64,000 nt of DNA. Origin: an uncultured Gemmatimonadales bacterium (GTDB lineage Bacteria > Gemmatimonadota > Gemmatimonadetes > Gemmatimonadales > GWC2-71-9). The position numbers were made by a program, and so were the translations under genes. Below the pieces are notes generated by a model. That model worked only from the letters and a program-made list of their open reading frames with translations. It did no database searches and was not told the DNA's origin. Within the stretch, counting starts at the first letter, position 1, and every line of letters starts with the position of its first letter. The stretch covers positions 32,001 through 96,000 of the forward strand of contig CAVSQW010000009.1 of the NCBI GenBank assembly GCA_963730185.1, in the 5' to 3' direction. This document shows, piece after piece, positions 1,887-48,961 of the stretch.

Positions 1887-2735
1887 TCAGGCGACCGCGT
1901 CCCGCCCGATCACCGCCAGGTCGAGCGCTCCGTCGCCCGCCGCGATCAGCTCGTCCATCCGGGCCGCGATTCCCGGCAGCACCATCATCGTCCGGTCACC
2001 GGCGGTCTCGAGCATCAGCCGCACGTCTTTCCGCGCCATCGTCAGCTCGAAGCTGGGCGAGAAGTCGCCCGACGCGAGGCTCTTGGCTCGCCCCGACAGA
2101 ATCGCCATCGGATTGAAGAAGTCGAACAAGCTGAGCATGTCGGCCGGCGGCACCTCCGCGCCGTTGGCGATCTGGAATACGTCGGCCAGGAGGGCGGTGA
2201 TCCCGATGATGAAGGCGTTGCCCGAGATCTTGTAGACCGCGGCCAGGTCGGGCCGCTCGCCGAGAAAGATCACCCGCGAGGCTTGCTGGGCGAGCGCCGG
2301 CTCCACCTGGTCGAACAGCGCCTGGGGCCCCGAGGCCAGGATGATCCCCTTCGATTGGCGAGCCGCCGCGGGGCCGATGAACACGGGGCAGTGGAGGTAT
2401 CGCACCCCGGCCGCGTTGAGCCGCGGGGCCCGCTCGGCCGTGAGCTCCGGCTGGGTGGTAGTGTGGTCCACGACGATGGCGTCCTTCTCCAGGCCGGGGC
2501 GGAGCTGGCCGACGATCTCCTCGACCACCGCGTCGTCCTTGAGCACCAGATGGACCCGATCGGCGCCGCGCACGGCATCGGCGGGAGTGGGGGCGACGGC
2601 AGCGCCGAGGGGGGCCAGGGCCGCCGCCTTCGCGGCGGTCCGGTTCCAGACGGTCACCTGGTCTCCTCGCTTCAGGGCGGCTTCGACGAAGGCCGCGCCC
2701 AGGAGGCCGGTTCCGAGATAGGCGATCTTGGTCAT
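1887..2735 (-). CDS. NAD(P)-dependent oxidoreductase, 3-hydroxyisobutyrate/6-phosphogluconate dehydrogenase family
   Basis: N-terminal Rossmann motif IAYLGTGLLG, VWNRT, DHTT and C-terminal FELTMARKDVRL. ATG at 2735. Confidence 0.9.
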   Translation of the reverse strand: MTKIAYLGTGLLGAAFVEAALKRGDQVTVWNRTAAKAAALAPLGAAVAPTPADAVRGADRVHLVLKDDAVVEEIVGQLRPGLEKDAIVVDHTTTQPELTAERAPRLNAAGVRYLHCPVFIGPAAARQSKGIILASGPQALFDQVEPALAQQASRVIFLGERPDLAAVYKISGNAFIIGITALLADVFQIANGAEVPPADMLSLFDFFNPMAILSGRAKSLASGDFSPSFELTMARKDVRLMLETAGDRTMMVLPGIAARMDELIAAGDGALDLAVIGRDAVA

Positions 2736-2889
2736 GGCTCGGAATCTAGGTGGGGCGCGTCCGAGGTGGTCTCGCGCCGGTGGCTCCGCCGCCCGGGCCA
2801 AGTGGCGACCCGACCGGGAATCCCTGCTCTGGTGACTGCCGTAAGGTCATGGAGATCGACCCCGACCCTTCCCAACCCCAAGGTCCGTC

Positions 2890-3699
2890 ATGACCCAGAC
2901 CGGCGTCGACGACCAGGCCGAGCCCGCTCGAGTCGGACCAGGCCTCAGTCGACGGCAGTTCGTCGGCGCGACCGCGGCGGCGGTGCTCACCGGTCTTGGC
3001 ACCGGCTGCATCTTCGGTCCGGGCCACGGCGACGGGCGGATCGACGCCCGGCCCGGTACCCCCACGCAGAGTGCCAAGCTGGGCCTCTCGGCCCTGGGGC
3101 TCGAGAACGACCGCGACGGCGCCTGGTACGTCCCCGCCAGCTACCGGGCGGACCACCCCATCCCGCTCCTGGTGTTCTGCCACGGTGCCGGTGGGAACGG
3201 CGGCGCCACCGCCGACGCCCTCGGCCCCTACGCGGAGGCGGGCGGCTTTGCCGTGCTGGCACCGGACTCTCGTCAGTCCACCTGGGATCTGATCGACAAG
3301 GGAAGTTTCGGTGACGACGTGGGCTTCCTGGACCGGGCTCTGACCCGGACCTTCGAGCGGCTGGCGGTCGACCCGGCAGGGCTGATCCTGGCCGGCTTTT
3401 CCGATGGCGGCACCTACGCCCTGTCGCTGGGCATCACCAACGGCGACTTCTTCGGTCGACTGATGGCCTTCTCGCCCGGATTTGTCCGGTACGCGAGCCG
3501 ACATGGATCGCCGGCCATCTACCTGGCGCACGGCACCGCCGACACCGTACTCCCGATCAACGCGACCAGTCGGGCGATCGTGCCCGAGCTCCGCGGCCTC
3601 GGGTACCAGGTGGAGTACCGCGAATTCGATGGCGGTCATCAACTGTATGCCAGCGAGGTGCAGGCGGCCGTCGACTGGCTGGGCCTGGGAGGAGCCTGA
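2890..3699 (+). CDS. Tat-exported alpha/beta hydrolase (phospholipase/carboxylesterase family), possible lipoprotein
   Basis: SRRQFV twin-arginine signal then GTGC. Nucleophile elbow GFSDG, HGTAD (Asp) and FDGGH (His). Confidence 0.85.
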   Translation: MTQTGVDDQAEPARVGPGLSRRQFVGATAAAVLTGLGTGCIFGPGHGDGRIDARPGTPTQSAKLGLSALGLENDRDGAWYVPASYRADHPIPLLVFCHGAGGNGGATADALGPYAEAGGFAVLAPDSRQSTWDLIDKGSFGDDVGFLDRALTRTFERLAVDPAGLILAGFSDGGTYALSLGITNGDFFGRLMAFSPGFVRYASRHGSPAIYLAHGTADTVLPINATSRAIVPELRGLGYQVEYREFDGGHQLYASEVQAAVDWLGLGGA

Positions 3700-43284: not shown

Positions 43285-43637
43285 CCTGCCCCACTGTGCT
43301 GCCGAGCCGCCCACGAGAGCAACTCGTCCCGAAGCTGATCGAACCCCGCGCCGTAGGCTTCACGCCGGGTTCGGATCACGAGATCCAGGGGGCCGACCTC
43401 GCCCCGCAACCGCCGCCGCCAAATTTCCTTGAGGCGGCGGCGCAAACGATTGCGGGCCACCGCCGTGGACTGGAACTTCGGGACGATCAGTCCCAGTCTC
43501 GGGTAGCCCGCCTCATTCACCGCCCAGACGAGATCCACGTGCGACAAGCGCCGCCGCCGGCCTCGGTCGAATACCCGCTGATAGTCGTCCGCTTTCCCCA
43601 GCCGACCGGCCGGCGAAAGACGCTCGGACGACGTTAC
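43281..43637 (-). CDS. rnpA: Ribonuclease P protein component (start codon uncertain)
   Basis: [32 protein letters not shown] (RNR motif); lies between rpmH and yidD. Confidence 0.9.
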
Positions 43638-43795
43638 CGACCTCCGTGCTTCGAGGCGATGCGGACGGTGAGCCGTTTCCGCCCCTTTTTCCGGCGGCGG
43701 CTGAGCACGGCACGACCCCAACGATCGGCCATCCGGGCACGGAACCCGTGACGGTTCACTCGTTTGCGATTTCGGGGCCGGTAGGTCGGCTGCAT
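43634..43795 (-). CDS. rpmH: 50S ribosomal protein L34 (absent from the ORF track)
   Basis: Manual translation [62 protein letters not shown]. Confidence 0.97.
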
Positions 43796-43826
43796 ATTAC
43801 TCCTCGACGCCTCCAGTGAGCCCGAA

Positions 43827-43856
43827 AAGCTAGCCCAGCCACGGGCTTGCGGTCAA
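43827..43856 (-). promoter_or_regulatory. Putative rpmH operon promoter
   Basis: TTGACC(43856-43851)-18 bp-TAGCTT(43832-43827), back-to-back with the dnaA promoter. Confidence 0.5.
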
Positions 43857-43858
43857 GG

Positions 43859-43887
43859 TTGACTTTTCCACACGCGGGTCGTAGAAT
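43859..43887 (+). promoter_or_regulatory. dnaA promoter with an embedded perfect DnaA box
   Basis: TTGACT(43859-43864)-17 bp-TAGAAT(43882-43887). TTTTCCACA at 43864-43872 matches TTWTNCACA. Confidence 0.8.
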
Positions 43888-43939
43888 CGCCTCCCCCTTC
43901 CGACCTTCCCCTACGAGTCAGGGTTTGCACCGAGGCGAA

Positions 43940-45334
43940 ATGCAGCTCTCCCCCAAAGAGGCGTGGAAGCGCATTCTCGACGAGGCCCGCCGCGAGCTTC
44001 CCGAGCAGGCCGTCGCCACCTGGCTGGCCCCGGCCGAGCCGCTCGAGCTCCAGGACGGCAAGCTCACCCTCGGGGTTCCGGACGAATTCGCGGTCAAGTG
44101 GAACGAGACCAAGCACGGCTCCCTGCTGTCCCGGCTGGCCGAACAGGTCGTGGGTCAACGGATCACCGTGGCCTTCCGGGTGCCGGATGACCGGTTCCAG
44201 CGCCCCCAGATCGACTTCTTCGTAGCCCAACCGGACGACGACGGGCCGGTCACGCCGGCCGTCCGCCCGACCCACTCGCCGCTCCCGCTCAACGAGCGTT
44301 ACACCTTCGATTCGTTCGTGATCGGCAAGTCCAACGAGCTCGCGGCGGCCGCCGCTTATGCGGTCGCCGAGACCCCCGGCAAGACCTACAACCCGCTGTT
44401 CATCTACGGCGGCACCGGCCTTGGCAAGACGCACCTGATGCAGGCCATCGCCCACGCGGTTCTCGGGAAGGCCCCGGGAACCCGTCTGGTCTACGTCGGC
44501 GCCGAGCATTTCATCAACGAGGTGATCGAGGGCATCCACGGTCGGACCATGCCGGAGCTCCGGCGACGATACCGCACCGAGGTGGACCTGTTCCTCGTCG
44601 ACGACGTGCACTTCCTGGAAGGCAAGGAGGCAACCCAGGAGGAGTTCTTCCATACGTTCAACACGCTGTACGAGGCCCAGAAGCAGATCGTCCTGACCTC
44701 GGACCGGCCCCCGAAGGACATGCCCGGACTCGAGGCACGCCTGGTCAGCCGGTTCGAATGGGGCATGGTCGCCGACATCGGCCAGCCCGACTTGGAACAC
44801 CGGATCGCCATCCTCCGGAAGAAACAAGAGCAGGACCACCTCGAGACCACGATTCCCGACGAGGTCCTGAGCTTCATTGCGGAACATGTGTTTTCGAATG
44901 TCCGGGAGCTCGAGGGTTGCATCATCAAGCTGCTCCTCTACGCCTCGCTCCGGCATCGCGAGGTCACCATCGACCTGGCCCGAGAAGCCCTCGCGGATCG
45001 GATTCGTCCCGGGCCCCAGCTCCACGAGGGCACGCCCAAGGCCTTGCCGACGATCGACAAGGTGCAAGACGTCGTGGCCCGCCGGTGGGGCGTGACGCCG
45101 GAGGGACTCCGCTCGAAGGCGCGGATCAAGAGCTTGACGGTGCCCCGACAGATCGCGATGTACCTCGCCCGCGAGGTGTTGAACATGCAGCTGGTCGAGA
45201 TCGGGCAGGCGTTCGGCGGGCGCGATCACTCGACCGTCATTCACAGTGTGGACAAGGTCCAGCGGCAGCTGTCGCGCGACCGTGCATTCCGAGACCGAGT
45301 CGACTCGGCGCGGGCCGAGTTGACGAGCGGGTGA
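43940..45334 (+). CDS. dnaA: Chromosomal replication initiator DnaA
   Basis: YTFDSFV, YNPLFIYGGTGLGKTHL, DDVHFL, NVRELEG, GGRDHSTV. ATG 43940. Confidence 0.98.
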   Translation: MQLSPKEAWKRILDEARRELPEQAVATWLAPAEPLELQDGKLTLGVPDEFAVKWNETKHGSLLSRLAEQVVGQRITVAFRVPDDRFQRPQIDFFVAQPDDDGPVTPAVRPTHSPLPLNERYTFDSFVIGKSNELAAAAAYAVAETPGKTYNPLFIYGGTGLGKTHLMQAIAHAVLGKAPGTRLVYVGAEHFINEVIEGIHGRTMPELRRRYRTEVDLFLVDDVHFLEGKEATQEEFFHTFNTLYEAQKQIVLTSDRPPKDMPGLEARLVSRFEWGMVADIGQPDLEHRIAILRKKQEQDHLETTIPDEVLSFIAEHVFSNVRELEGCIIKLLLYASLRHREVTIDLAREALADRIRPGPQLHEGTPKALPTIDKVQDVVARRWGVTPEGLRSKARIKSLTVPRQIAMYLAREVLNMQLVEIGQAFGGRDHSTVIHSVDKVQRQLSRDRAFRDRVDSARAELTSG

Positions 45335-45392
45335 AGGCGAGAGAACCCGCGTCACCCGCCAGAGTGTTCGCAGCGATGGGGAGTGTGATCGC

Positions 45393-46505
45393 ATGAAGTT
45401 CACCATCACCCGAGAGAAGCTGCACGAGGGCCTGGGAGCGGTGGCCGGAAGCGTGCCGTCCAAAGCCACGCTTCCGGTCCTCTCTCACCTTCTCGTGGAA
45501 GCCACCAAGGATGGGATCCGCCTGTCCGGCACGGATCTGGACATCGCCGTCACCACGGTGATCCCGGCCGAGGTCAACCAGGAGGGGGCCGCGATGGTGC
45601 CCGCCCGGAAGCTCGCCGAGATCGTGCGGGAGCTGCCCAGCGCCGCGATTCGGGTCACCAGCTCGGGCGAGCAGCGAGTCCAGATCGAGTGTGGACGCTC
45701 GCGTTTCAAGTTGCTCGGTCTCTCCCGCGAGGAGTTTCCGGCCTTTCCGGCCGTCACGTTCGAAGGCGGCTGGAACGTCGTGGCCAGGGACCTTCAAAAG
45801 CTCATCACCCATGTGGCCTTCGCGGCCAGCACCGAGGAGAGCCGCCCGATCCTGAACGGGGTGCTCTGGGAGCTCCGAAGCGACCGGATGCGGATGGTCG
45901 CCACCAACGGGCATCGGCTGGCCCGCATGGACATGCCGCTCAAGGGTGCCGGCCAGGCCGACCTGATCGTGCCGCCCAAGGCCCTCGATCAGATCCGCCG
46001 ACTCTTCGGCCCGGACGAAGAGGTCGAGATCGCCCGGAGTGACAACCACCTCGGATTTCGCTCGGCCGCAACTCAGGTGTTCACCCGGCTCATCGAGGGG
46101 CCGTACCCGCCCTTGGAGGTTCTCGACAAGCTACTGCGCGAGAACGACAAGATCGTGACGGTGGACCGGACCGCCTTCACGTCGGCCATCCGGCGGATGA
46201 GCATCGTCGCCAGCGACCAGACCCACCGGATCCGCCTGGCGTTCTCCAACGGGGCCTGCAAGCTCTCGGTCACCACGCCTGATCTGGGCGACGCCCAGGA
46301 AGAGATGTCCGTCTCCTACGACGGCGATCCCCTGGAGATTGGATTCAACGCCTCGTACCTGTTGGAGGTCCTCAAGTTCATGCCGACCGACGAGGTAAGG
46401 CTGAGGTTCAAGGCTCCTGAACGCGGGGCCACGTGTGAGCCGGTGGGCTGGGACGACCCGGCGAGCTACCTCGCCCTGGTAATGCCTCTCCGGTTGCTCG
46501 ATTAG
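45393..46505 (+). CDS. dnaN: DNA polymerase III beta clamp, copy 1 (variant pocket segment)
   Basis: GTDLD, PARKL, RPILNG, ATNGHRL, GFNASY, VMPLRL. The usual PxYxxVIP segment is replaced by PPLEVLDKLL. Confidence 0.95.
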   Translation: MKFTITREKLHEGLGAVAGSVPSKATLPVLSHLLVEATKDGIRLSGTDLDIAVTTVIPAEVNQEGAAMVPARKLAEIVRELPSAAIRVTSSGEQRVQIECGRSRFKLLGLSREEFPAFPAVTFEGGWNVVARDLQKLITHVAFAASTEESRPILNGVLWELRSDRMRMVATNGHRLARMDMPLKGAGQADLIVPPKALDQIRRLFGPDEEVEIARSDNHLGFRSAATQVFTRLIEGPYPPLEVLDKLLRENDKIVTVDRTAFTSAIRRMSIVASDQTHRIRLAFSNGACKLSVTTPDLGDAQEEMSVSYDGDPLEIGFNASYLLEVLKFMPTDEVRLRFKAPERGATCEPVGWDDPASYLALVMPLRLLD

Positions 46506-46530
46506 GTCGATCCGACTGAAACAGCAATGG

Positions 46531-46654
46531 TTCCGCGGTCGCGCCTCACTCGACTGTGTTTCTTACGGTGTGGACAAAGGTCGCGCTTCGGTTGTCGCCC
46601 GACCACGCGCTCCGACAACGAGTTGACTCGGCTCGCGGGCAAGCCGACCAAGTG
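46531..46654 (+). pseudogene. Degenerate remnant of the dnaA 3' end (domain IV)
   Basis: DNA aligns to 45212-45334. Translation HSTVFLTVWTKVALRLSPDHALRQRVDSARGQ versus DnaA HSTVIHSVDKVQRQLSRDRAFRDRVDSARAE, with indels. Confidence 0.85.
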
Positions 46655-46870
46655 GCCGACCATGCTGGGTCGTGTGAGTTGCTGTGGGTGACGTGGAAGA
46701 CGCTGGAAAACCCCACGCCTCTCCACGAAATCCGCACTGCCAACAAACGACGTTCTGGCGATGGGGACGGTAAGCATCGTGCCGGTGGGGAGTTGGGCGA
46801 CCGCTCAACAATGGCGCCCCTCTACGATTACTACGAGTTCTATTAAACTGTTGCAGTCTTGTAGAAATAT
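46569..46870 (+). other. Candidate oriC (DnaA-box cluster, GC spacer, DnaA-trio-like repeats, AT-rich tract)
   Basis: TGTGGACAA 46569-46577. Degenerate boxes at 46683, 46692, 46702, 46719, 46728. GGCGCCCC 46813-46820 then CTACGATTACTACGA 46822-46836 and an AT-rich stretch to about 46870. Confidence 0.6.
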
Positions 46871-46894
46871 GGCGAGTTCGCGGAGCGTGAGCGC

Positions 46895-48004
46895 ATGAAG
46901 TTCACCATCACCCGAGAGAAGCTGCACGAGGGTCTGGGAGCGGTGACCGCAAGCGTGCCGTCCAAGACCACGCTTCCGGTGCTCTCCAACATCCTCGTGG
47001 AGGCCACCCAGGACGGGATTCGCCTGTCCGGCACCGACCTGGACATCGCCGTGACGACGGTGATCCCGGCCGAAGTCGATCAGGAGGGTGCCACCACCCT
47101 CCCTGCCCGGAAGCTTGCCGAGATCGTGCGGGAGCTGCCCAGCGCCGCGATTCGGGTCACCAGCTCGGGCGAGCAACGGGTCCAGATCGAATGCGGCCGA
47201 TCGCGGTTCAAGCTGCTCGGACTATCGCGGGAGGAGTTTCCCTCGTTTCCGGCGGTTAAGTTCGAGGGCGGCTGGAACGTCGTGGCCAAGGACCTTCAAA
47301 AGCTCATCACCCATGTGGCCTTCGCGGCCAGCACCGAGGAGAGCCGCCCGATCCTGAACGGGGTGCTCTGGGAGCTCCGGAGCGACCGGATGCGGATGGT
47401 CGCCACCAACGGGCATCGCCTGGCCCGCATGGACGTGCCGCTCAAGGGTGCCGGGGGTCAGGCCGACCTGATCGTGCCGCCCAAGGCCCTCGATCAGATC
47501 CGCCGCCTTTTCAGGCCGGACGAGGAGATCGAGATCGCCCGGAGCGACAATCACCTGGGGTTTCGATCGGCGGGCACCCAGGTGTTCACCCGACTCATCG
47601 AGGGGCCCTACCCGCCTTACGAGCAGGTCATTCCCCGCGAGAACGATAAGATCGTGACGGTGGACCGGACCGCCTTCGCGTCGGCCATCCGGCGGATGAG
47701 CATCGTCGCCAGCGACCAGACTCACCGGATCCGCCTGGCGTTGACCAACGGGGCCTGCAAGCTTTCGGTCACCACGCCCGACCTGGGCGACGCCCAGGAA
47801 GAGATGTCCGTCTCCTACGACGGCGACCCCCTCGAGATTGGGTTCAACGCCTCGTACCTGCTCGAGATCTTGAAGGCAATGCCGACCGACGAGGTTCGGA
47901 TGACCTTCAAGGCGCCGGAGCGCGCGGCCACCTGTGAGCCCGTCGGCTGGGACGACCCGGCTAGCTACCTGTCGTTGGTGATGCCACTCCGCCTGCTGGA
48001 CTAG
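46895..48004 (+). CDS. dnaN: DNA polymerase III beta clamp, copy 2 (canonical)
   Basis: All clamp motifs present, including RLIEGPYPPYEQVIP and VMPLRL. Confidence 0.97.
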   Translation: MKFTITREKLHEGLGAVTASVPSKTTLPVLSNILVEATQDGIRLSGTDLDIAVTTVIPAEVDQEGATTLPARKLAEIVRELPSAAIRVTSSGEQRVQIECGRSRFKLLGLSREEFPSFPAVKFEGGWNVVAKDLQKLITHVAFAASTEESRPILNGVLWELRSDRMRMVATNGHRLARMDVPLKGAGGQADLIVPPKALDQIRRLFRPDEEIEIARSDNHLGFRSAGTQVFTRLIEGPYPPYEQVIPRENDKIVTVDRTAFASAIRRMSIVASDQTHRIRLALTNGACKLSVTTPDLGDAQEEMSVSYDGDPLEIGFNASYLLEILKAMPTDEVRMTFKAPERAATCEPVGWDDPASYLSLVMPLRLLD

Positions 48005-48835
48005 CGCGACCCGTTCGAGTCGGATTCCGGATCGTCGCTGTCGAGTGGAACCCGGATCGGTTCTCCCTGCATCCGTCGGAGAATCAGTTGCTGGCGCCAC
48101 CGCATCCGGCCCGCCCGATAGCGAGGGTTTGAGCTGAGCGGGAAGGGGAGCGTTCCAGCGAGAGCCGCGGCCTCGTCGGCGGTCAGGTTGGCGGCCGGCC
48201 GGCCGAAGTAGTACCGGCTGGCAGCCTCCACCCCCCAGATCTCCGGGCCGAACTCGACGACGTTGAGGTAGAGCTCCAACACCCGGTTCTTGCCAAGCGC
48301 CCACTCCAACCGATAGGCCGTCACCGCCTCCTTCGCTTTCCGAAGTGGGTTCCGCGAGGGGGAGAGGTACAGGTTCTTGGCGAGCTGTTGGGTTATCGTG
48401 CTGGCTCCTCGGATCCGATCCCGGCGCGACCACGCCCGTCCCAAATCCCGGAGCATCTCGTCGCGATCCCGCGGATTGGTCCAGGTGAAGTCGTCCCTCC
48501 GGTAGCCGAGCGCCTCCCGGATCGCTTGGTAGTCGATTCCGCCGTGTTCGTAGAAGCGGTGGTCCTCCGCCACGATCGCGGCCGCTAGGACGCCGGGTGC
48601 GATCGCGCTGAGGGGCACCGGCTGATAGAGGCGCGGAAGGACCCCGTCCTTGGCGTCACGACGGCGCTCCGGATGGGACGCCATCTGGGCTGCCTGGGAT
48701 CGTCGGAGGCTCATGAACGCGGTCTGATGGGGCCAGAACCAGCGGTACCAGATTGGGGGAGGCCAGACCGCCACCAGCCAGAGCGCGAAAGCGGCCCCGA
48801 ACAGGAGAGCGAGCTTGACCAGGGCCCTTGGCCAC
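48001..48835 (-). CDS. mtgA: Monofunctional peptidoglycan transglycosylase (start uncertain)
   Basis: GT51 motifs EDHRFYEHGGID, GASTITQQLAKNLYL, RKAKE, LELYLN. The in-frame upstream start lies beyond a terminator; an out-of-frame GTG at 48835 may be the start. Confidence 0.88.
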
Positions 48836-48887
48836 CTGCGCCGGATCGGCCGTTCAGGAGCACCAACAGCTACTACTAATTTGTCAG

Positions 48888-48927
48888 GAGAAGCAAAGGG
48901 GCGCTCTGTCTCCGAGCGCCCCTTTGC
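48888..48927 (-). terminator. Stem-loop terminator after the 48962-49744 gene
   Basis: Perfect 14-bp stem GCAAAGGGGCGCTC (48893-48906)/GAGCGCCCCTTTGC (48914-48927); weak U-tail. Confidence 0.65.
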
Positions 48928-48961
48928 GGTTGTCGTGGACCCGAACACGACGACGGCGCCG

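Follow-up and report, generated by a model that had tools for sequence, protein, structure and literature searches.

We analysed a window of 64,000 nucleotides (nt) from an uncultured Gemmatimonadales bacterium (assembly GCA_963730185.1, contig CAVSQW010000009.1, positions 32,001 to 96,000; the assembly, here G000, is 5.27 Mb long and 82% complete, with 0.37% contamination), in which the origin region carries two adjacent dnaN genes for the beta sliding clamp. The genes run in the order mnmE, yidC, dnaA, dnaN1, dnaN2, followed by a minus-strand mtgA-like gene (Table 1). Our best reading of the upstream clamp paralog, set out below, is a specialised second subunit of the clamp, and neither a spare copy nor a drug-resistance amplification.

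Tandem duplication of a dnaA 3'-end, origin and dnaN unit

The two dnaN reading frames are full-length, start 1502 bp apart (45393 and 46895) and are the sole dnaN matches in the assembly. Their products agree at 337 of 371 positions and the genes at 980 of 1104 nt (88.8%), in line with the roughly 90% estimated in the first-pass annotation of this DNA, and their codon differences comprise 74 synonymous and 31 non-synonymous changes. That annotation had also placed a decayed copy of the dnaA 3' end between the two genes, and the alignment to dnaA proved significant: the 389-bp spacer starts with a remnant for which blastn against the whole genome returned 111 nt at 75.7% identity to the dnaA 3' end (E-value 2.3e-11). 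In local alignment, 46524-46659 matched 45205-45334 with a strict score of 102, where shuffles reached no more than 35, and the genome's own dnaA was the best match among 21 dnaA genes compared (next best score, 87); a gap-permissive score, which is a weak test, gave 123.5 when the best shuffle gave 120. The two spacers further share GCGATGGGGA, at 45373 and 46758, as previously remarked, with modest statistical weight (among 2000 shuffles 0.85% produced a common 10-mer, and 8 of 300 equalled the local alignment between the spacers).

Past the remnant, the second spacer is collinear with the interval that separates dnaA from dnaN in single-copy relatives; this interval measures about 230-250 bp in single-copy congeners versus 58 bp for spacer 1. 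The second spacer contains a box-like TCAACA at 46805, a GC-rich gap, a DnaA-trio-like run at 46820-46835 (GTA repeats on the minus strand) and an AT-rich tract from 46836, a module present only here and missing from spacer 1, where the lack of origin-like elements had already been pointed out. Of 18 single-copy congeners, 16 contain a box-gap-trio pattern of our own making, which was fitted to the same sequences in which it was counted; in the three genomes with tandem dnaN the pattern precedes copy 2 every time and copy 1 never. The cumulative GC skew of the contig reaches its minimum at window position 45048, and the lowest-GC 100-bp bin is 46800-46899. The collinearity, the box-gap-trio pattern, the skew minimum and the reduced spacer 1 make a site between the two clamp genes the most likely one for the origin of replication, oriC.

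The basal unwinding system of bacterial origins comprises a DnaA-box site, a 6-16-bp gap, at least three trios and an AT-rich tract (PMC8287927). Judged by its sequence, the segment 46660-46894 would qualify, with a DnaA-box-like site, a gap no longer than 16 bp, at least three trios and an AT tract upstream of dnaN2; it differs from the described origins in its degenerate box (TCAACA) and in the extra gene between origin and dnaA. In the trio run, the three tandem genomes have GATTAC where the single-copy congener G017 has GACTAC, a weak hint of common history at the locus.

The remnant, the spacer collinearity and the origin module support the first-pass proposal that a unit of dnaA 3' end, origin and dnaN was duplicated in tandem, giving the order dnaA, dnaN1, remnant, oriC, dnaN2. 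The accompanying idea of reciprocal loss stands insofar as the origin survives before copy 2 alone; a loss of dnaA from copy 2 does not follow, as the duplicated unit perhaps included only the last ~130 nt of the gene.

Table 1. Features of the dnaA-dnaN region, in window coordinates
Feature	Position	Strand	Remarks
Sigma70-like dnaA promoter, TTGACT-17-TAGAAT	43859..43887	+	overlaps DnaA box TTTTCCACA at 43864-43872
dnaA	43940..45334	+	intact, 464 aa; TIGR00362 500 bits (cut-off 343.9)
QIDFF at DnaA residue 90	44207..44221	+	clamp-binding-motif-like peptide; candidate motif
Spacer 1	45335..45392	+	58 bp; collapsed dnaA-dnaN intergenic region; ribosome-binding site retained, origin module gone
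dnaN1	45393..46505	+	370 aa, pocket-altered beta clamp; TIGR00663 297.6 bits (cut-off 137.65)
Rewritten loop, LEVLDKLL for YEQVIP	46113..46136	+	+2 aa; subsite I rim, E. coli R246/V247 region
dnaN1 3' tail	46344..46502	+	groups with upstream copies of G010/G003, not with own dnaN2
dnaA 3'-end copy	46524..46659	+	decayed, frameshifted; still has box TGTGGACAA at 46569
Probable oriC	46660..46894	.	collinear with ancestral dnaA-dnaN intergenic region
dnaN2	46895..48004	+	369 aa, canonical beta clamp (PYEQVIP); TIGR00663 325.3 bits (cut-off 137.65)
mtgA-like transglycosylase	48001-48948	-	converges on dnaN2, 4-bp overlap

Distribution and mosaic history of the tandem

A survey of dnaA-dnaN synteny in relatives, as the first-pass annotation had recommended, found the tandem layout in 3 of 22 genomes of the genus: G000, G010, with two full-length tandem genes on one contig, and G003, where copy 1 shares a contig with the 5' portion of copy 2, whose 3' portion lies on a second contig. 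Eighteen of the 22 carry dnaA-dnaN-mtgA with a single dnaN, and G019, whose contigs end at dnaN, gives no information. Throughout the genus loci examined dnaN is followed by mtgA, and neither recF nor gyrB follows it there. Across the family, 374 of 401 genomes had a dnaN match (a tally, and the only one, that takes in eight unpublished genomes: G051, G104, G169, G221, G232, G270, G316 and G406), and 35 besides G000 had two or more; a tandem full-length pair occurred in none of the 15 of these that were checked (best E-value below 1e-175, the other 20 having weaker best hits), and tandem dnaN in none of 80 metagenome loci. Three family loci (L171, G313:C10; L172, G096:C117; L181, G192:C32) hold distant extra dnaN homologues with 31-40% identity, away from the origin and possibly on mobile elements, and at another locus (L185, G236:C201, about 2560-3100) a tandem duplication of ~300 bp, spanning the dnaN 3' end and downstream sequence, has left a short broken C-terminal copy.

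The layout could in principle be an assembly chimera joining the dnaN genes of two strains, a worry raised at first pass. Contigs from soil sequencing runs, at about 90-97% identity, cover the altered loop of dnaN1 (45954-46169), the junction of remnant and spacer (46553-46821) and that of spacer and dnaN2 (46819-47297, 46752-47136). Among the pieces listed, which come from four of the seven runs and stand beside 229 further pieces, none bridges dnaA and dnaN1 or the dnaN1 stop and the remnant, as a chimera would have it, and none spans the whole stretch; two pieces with zero differences (X2 and X5, from one study) perhaps belong to the same strain and were not counted as independent. Against this stand the same layout in G010 and G003, the independent soil contigs and the low contamination of the assembly. 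Since the tandem recurs in three of the 22 genus genomes we set misassembly aside, and a chimera, largely refuted already, is scarcely credible.

Whole-gene trees join the two G000 copies as sisters (support 100 for nucleotides, 95 for amino acids), and pair the copies of G010 and G003 by position. The rpoB protein tree gives the species order (G000,(G017,(G003,G010))), with support of 0.98-0.99 for G017 with G003/G010 and 0.64-0.70 on adding G000, so that single-copy G017 nests between G000 and the other tandem genomes. The phylogenetic signal changes along the gene: informative sites favour the species over the paralog pattern by 68:7 before nt 960, approximately, and by 2:7 after it (maximum chi-square p<0.0002), and a tree of the last ~160 nt joins all upstream copies (bootstrap 90). 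In approximately unbiased tests the middle of the gene rejects grouping by paralog (p=4e-5), and the tail prefers it, with grouping by species not rejected (p=0.09). The first-pass prediction of sister copies thus holds for the gene body and not clearly for the last ~160 nt. Within the G000 pair, a low-divergence tract of 90 codons (p=0.0002) points to conversion.

These patterns bear on whether the three tandems go back to a single event. The dnaA remnants of G010 and G003 are not significant (scores of 24 and 27 versus shuffle maxima of 36 and 34), which leaves a common breakpoint unsupported, and the G000 remnant looks fresh and G000-like; both observations speak against one old event. We nevertheless lean slightly towards one old duplication, with conversion and with loss in G017, and regard separate duplications as a serious possibility that falls a little short of probable.

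The rewritten pocket loop of DnaN1

In DnaN1, the YEQVIP of DnaN2 is replaced by LEVLDKLL, with an insertion of two residues, such that the conserved Y-x-x-V-I-P loop is lost; this change, overlooked at first pass, is the central feature of the locus. The distance to the G-x-[YF]-P motif and an alignment with the Pseudomonas aeruginosa clamp (6AMS) place the loop at P242-R246-V247; subsite I of the partner-binding pocket includes P242, R246 and V247 (PMC11139829), and DnaN1 therefore lacks the canonical form of this subsite. Among 116 other clamps (alignment A1), Y242 is kept in 104, V245 in 110, P247 in 114 and the loop length in 115, and dnaN1 alters all four. At every further position checked (10 in subsite I, 8 in subsite II and 13 at the dimer interface), all of them mapped approximately and in part by Escherichia coli numbering, dnaN1 equals dnaN2.

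The protein is full-length and scores well above the curated family cut-off (Table 1). An AlphaFold2 model built with alignment A1 is a complete three-domain clamp fold, with a mean predicted local distance difference test (pLDDT) of 96.6 and a predicted template modelling (TM) score of 0.91, and compares with the solved clamps of E. coli (3PWE/7AZC) and P. aeruginosa (6AMS) at a TM score of about 0.91 (0.88-0.93); a single-sequence model was discarded (pLDDT 33.7). The loop is modelled as a nine-residue helix, 242-250, which is the lowest-confidence block (pLDDT 87). In alignment and predicted structure DnaN1 accordingly retains the ring, the dimer interface and subsite II, with the rim of subsite I rebuilt. 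It resembles canonical DnaN in fold, family score, dnaA-adjacent position, subsite II and interface, and is unlike it in that two copies flank oriC, in the missing Y-x-x-V-I-P loop and in the two added residues.

The loop is altered in other clamps too. Of 120 close proteins, 112 carry Y-x-QVIP, the exceptions being dnaN1, four with YEPGIP and one each with YEQGIP, YEGVIP and TEQVIP. YEPGIP is found in the upstream copy of G010 and G003 and in three metagenome proteins, and YEQGIP (YEQGIPRDND) in P0057 and P0287, on a separate branch adjoining canonical relatives; P0052 and P0050 show other single-site variants (YEGVIPRDND, TEQVIP). A DNA pattern for YExGIP matched only G003 and G010 among the genome contigs and nothing in the viral contigs. 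P0287 and the canonical P0288 each lie on a contig of 3256 bp, and P0059 (YEPGIP) and the canonical P0284 each on one of 8512 bp; from these equal contig sizes two more tandems may be suspected. An origin of the new loop by copying of the similar downstream LEVLKFM stretch was rejected, with 157 of 1000 shuffles as good. The LEVLDKLL loop sits in a G000-specific context (PP, REN) and is not derived from YEPGIP under either duplication history, and the loop has therefore been altered at least twice. This second, different rewriting of the same pocket loop, together with the mosaic gene history, is what is new here.

Selection on dnaN1 and possible roles of a second clamp

Between dnaN1 and dnaN2 the ratio of non-synonymous to synonymous divergence (dN/dS) is 0.12 at a synonymous divergence (dS) of 0.39, and a comparison of the G010 upstream copy with that of G003 gives 0.059 at dS 0.38. 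On the dnaN1 branch outside the loop, we counted 41 synonymous versus 21 non-synonymous changes with G010 copy 2 as outgroup and 30 versus 22 with G017, a ratio of about 0.18-0.26 given 282 synonymous and 795 non-synonymous sites. The independent soil contig carries the dnaN1 loop without gaps, with a synonymous change at 46124; seven of its eight listed differences are synonymous (p=0.0005), one of them within the loop, with 14 differences in all, six of these outside the listing, and a depth under 5. dnaN1 is under real purifying selection, weaker than that on dnaN2, and conversion could inflate the signal.

The bacterial clamp is commonly treated as a single-gene homodimer whose pocket is too constrained to change, and it is on account of this presumed constraint that the clamp is regarded as a drug target. 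Our preferred reading, which we hold tentatively as somewhat less than probable, is that DnaN1 is a pocket-altered subunit that forms one-pocket mixed rings with DnaN2 and is kept by selection. DnaN2 is the ordinary clamp, and DnaN1, given its rebuilt subsite I rim, would bind partners of the QLxLF type (QL[S/D]LF) weakly or with a different preference. With 91% identity between them, and with both probably expressed, DnaN1 and DnaN2 should form mixed rings in which one pocket is normal. In an engineered E. coli one-cleft heterodimer, loading and replication by DNA polymerase III were fine and unloading was poor (PMC2685083); by analogy, mixed rings would load, support the polymerase and unload slowly. 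Since the engineered ring loads and supports polymerase III, a natural one-pocket ring should be workable and would ration second partners, among them translesion polymerases, mobile-element or toxin proteins and possibly DnaA through its QIDFF peptide. Gene conversion would keep the copies compatible while the loop was altered repeatedly.

Several observations weigh against selected mixed rings. Eighteen of the 22 genus genomes, including nested G017, live with one dnaN, which argues that a second clamp is dispensable or easily lost. Derived residues number 23 in dnaN1 versus 8 in dnaN2 (p=0.01), indicating faster protein evolution, and dnaN1 has changed at well-kept sites away from the pocket (T68M, A344G), which fits relaxed selection too. 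That the lesions differ between lineages is easier to reconcile with lost binding than with a new, specific partner, and no partner gene restricted to tandem genomes was identified in a survey of gene content for Hda and non-ribosomal peptide synthetases (NRPS) only.

The faster evolution would also be expected if dnaN1 were a redundant, slowly decaying duplicate that dosage or conversion has preserved and whose loop tolerates damage because DnaN2 supplies the working pockets. The patchy distribution fits such redundancy, and conversion from dnaN2, of which the 90-codon tract is a sign, can mimic purifying selection. On the other side, the same six-residue motif was hit in three branches with the other pocket residues intact, the upstream copies of G010 and G003 show a low dN/dS over considerable divergence, and no frameshifted or truncated upstream copy occurs in the three tandem genomes. 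We consider redundancy unlikely.

Repeated, differing lesions in one loop would also fit an arms race, in which DnaN1 is an escape allele that evades a pocket-binding inhibitor (a SocB- or RipA-like toxin, a phage protein or a griselimycin-like peptide made by neighbours in the soil) and sustains some replication as homo- or heterodimer. Suppressors of both toxins map to this pocket, those of RipA at H183, L185, Y249, Y333 and L371 in pneumococcal DnaN (PMC12795458). The RipA sites, however, map to residues unchanged in DnaN1, by an inferred numbering offset and not by alignment, and the YEPGIP loop is unchanged between G010 and G003 at a dS of 0.38 and recurs in three further proteins, a stability that an ongoing arms race would not predict. 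The NRPS condensation domain PF00668 was found in none of five genomes searched (completeness 73-98%), which makes self-resistance to an NRPS product unlikely, and an escape allele has, in our view, only a small chance of being correct.

The first-pass annotation had named amplification under griselimycin as a precedent. In griselimycin-resistant Mycobacterium smegmatis the multiplied unit includes oriC and dnaN (PMC6761567), and GriR and MypR are self-resistance clamps encoded in biosynthetic clusters (PMC10817943). The present locus shares with both an extra dnaN and with the former a unit of oriC and dnaN. It differs from M. smegmatis in having two diverged copies (dS 0.39) and one origin module where a fresh array of identical units would be expected, and from GriR and MypR in the position of dnaN1 between dnaA and oriC, with no biosynthetic cluster or NRPS domain found; a griselimycin-type amplification is thus unsupported for a pair so old and diverged. 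Bacillus DnaN-2 is a second chromosomal clamp, about 40% similar to DnaN-1, that supports replication and is repair-deficient (PMC3290774, citing Yang and Miller 2008). Like it, the G000 paralog stands alongside a canonical clamp; unlike it, the copies here are 91% identical, lie in tandem at the origin, nest among the clamps of the genus and differ mainly in one pocket loop. The tandem is real and not ordinary, and it lacks the defining features of all three systems. We found no description of a tandem, pocket-altered dnaN in Gemmatimonadota in the part of the literature covered by our searches.

Unlike subunits in one ring, as proposed here, are known in principle from the E. coli beta+/betaC heterodimer (PMC2685083) and from natural heterotrimeric clamps, Sulfolobus PCNA and 9-1-1 (PMC9690074), although the first is artificial, the others are archaeal or eukaryotic, and mixed rings of DnaN1 and DnaN2 are a prediction. 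A more far-reaching proposal, which we think doubtful, is that a natural heterodimeric beta clamp has evolved repeatedly: a dnaA-proximal paralog held compatible with the normal clamp by conversion, selection rewriting the subsite I loop only, and one closed or re-specified pocket tuning partners (possibly DnaA), with G000 a second independent rewriting after conversion had restored the loop. If these are natural, selected one-loop paralogs, they would put the two-pocket 'toolbelt' model readily to the test and illustrate how a hub is rewired; as LEVLDKLL, YEPGIP and YEQGIP occur on nearly the same scaffold, the binding test is simple.

The mention of DnaA leads to a further alternative, that of initiation control. 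DnaA would dock on the clamp through QIDFF, with no Hda, and a DnaN1 co-transcribed with dnaA would serve as a clamp that neither captures nor inactivates DnaA. The predicted dnaA promoter likely drives both dnaA and dnaN1, which would lie within one putative transcript, and no terminator-like site was found in 43600-48200. Of 83 distinct DnaA segments taken from the loci retrieved, 81 carry Q[IM]D[FIL]F, and an Hda match over the cut-off was present in none of five genomes. The DnaA motif is, however, identical in single-copy and tandem genomes, which speaks against co-evolution of motif and clamp, and we judge initiation control quite improbable. An open frame of 1030 aa in G000 (G000:C2:89986-91890) has two DnaA/Hda-like AAA+ stretches that score below the Hda cut-off, and adjoins open reading frames that we take to be MglA/MglB-like; two-domain DnaA/Hda-like matches also occur in G003, G007 and G017.

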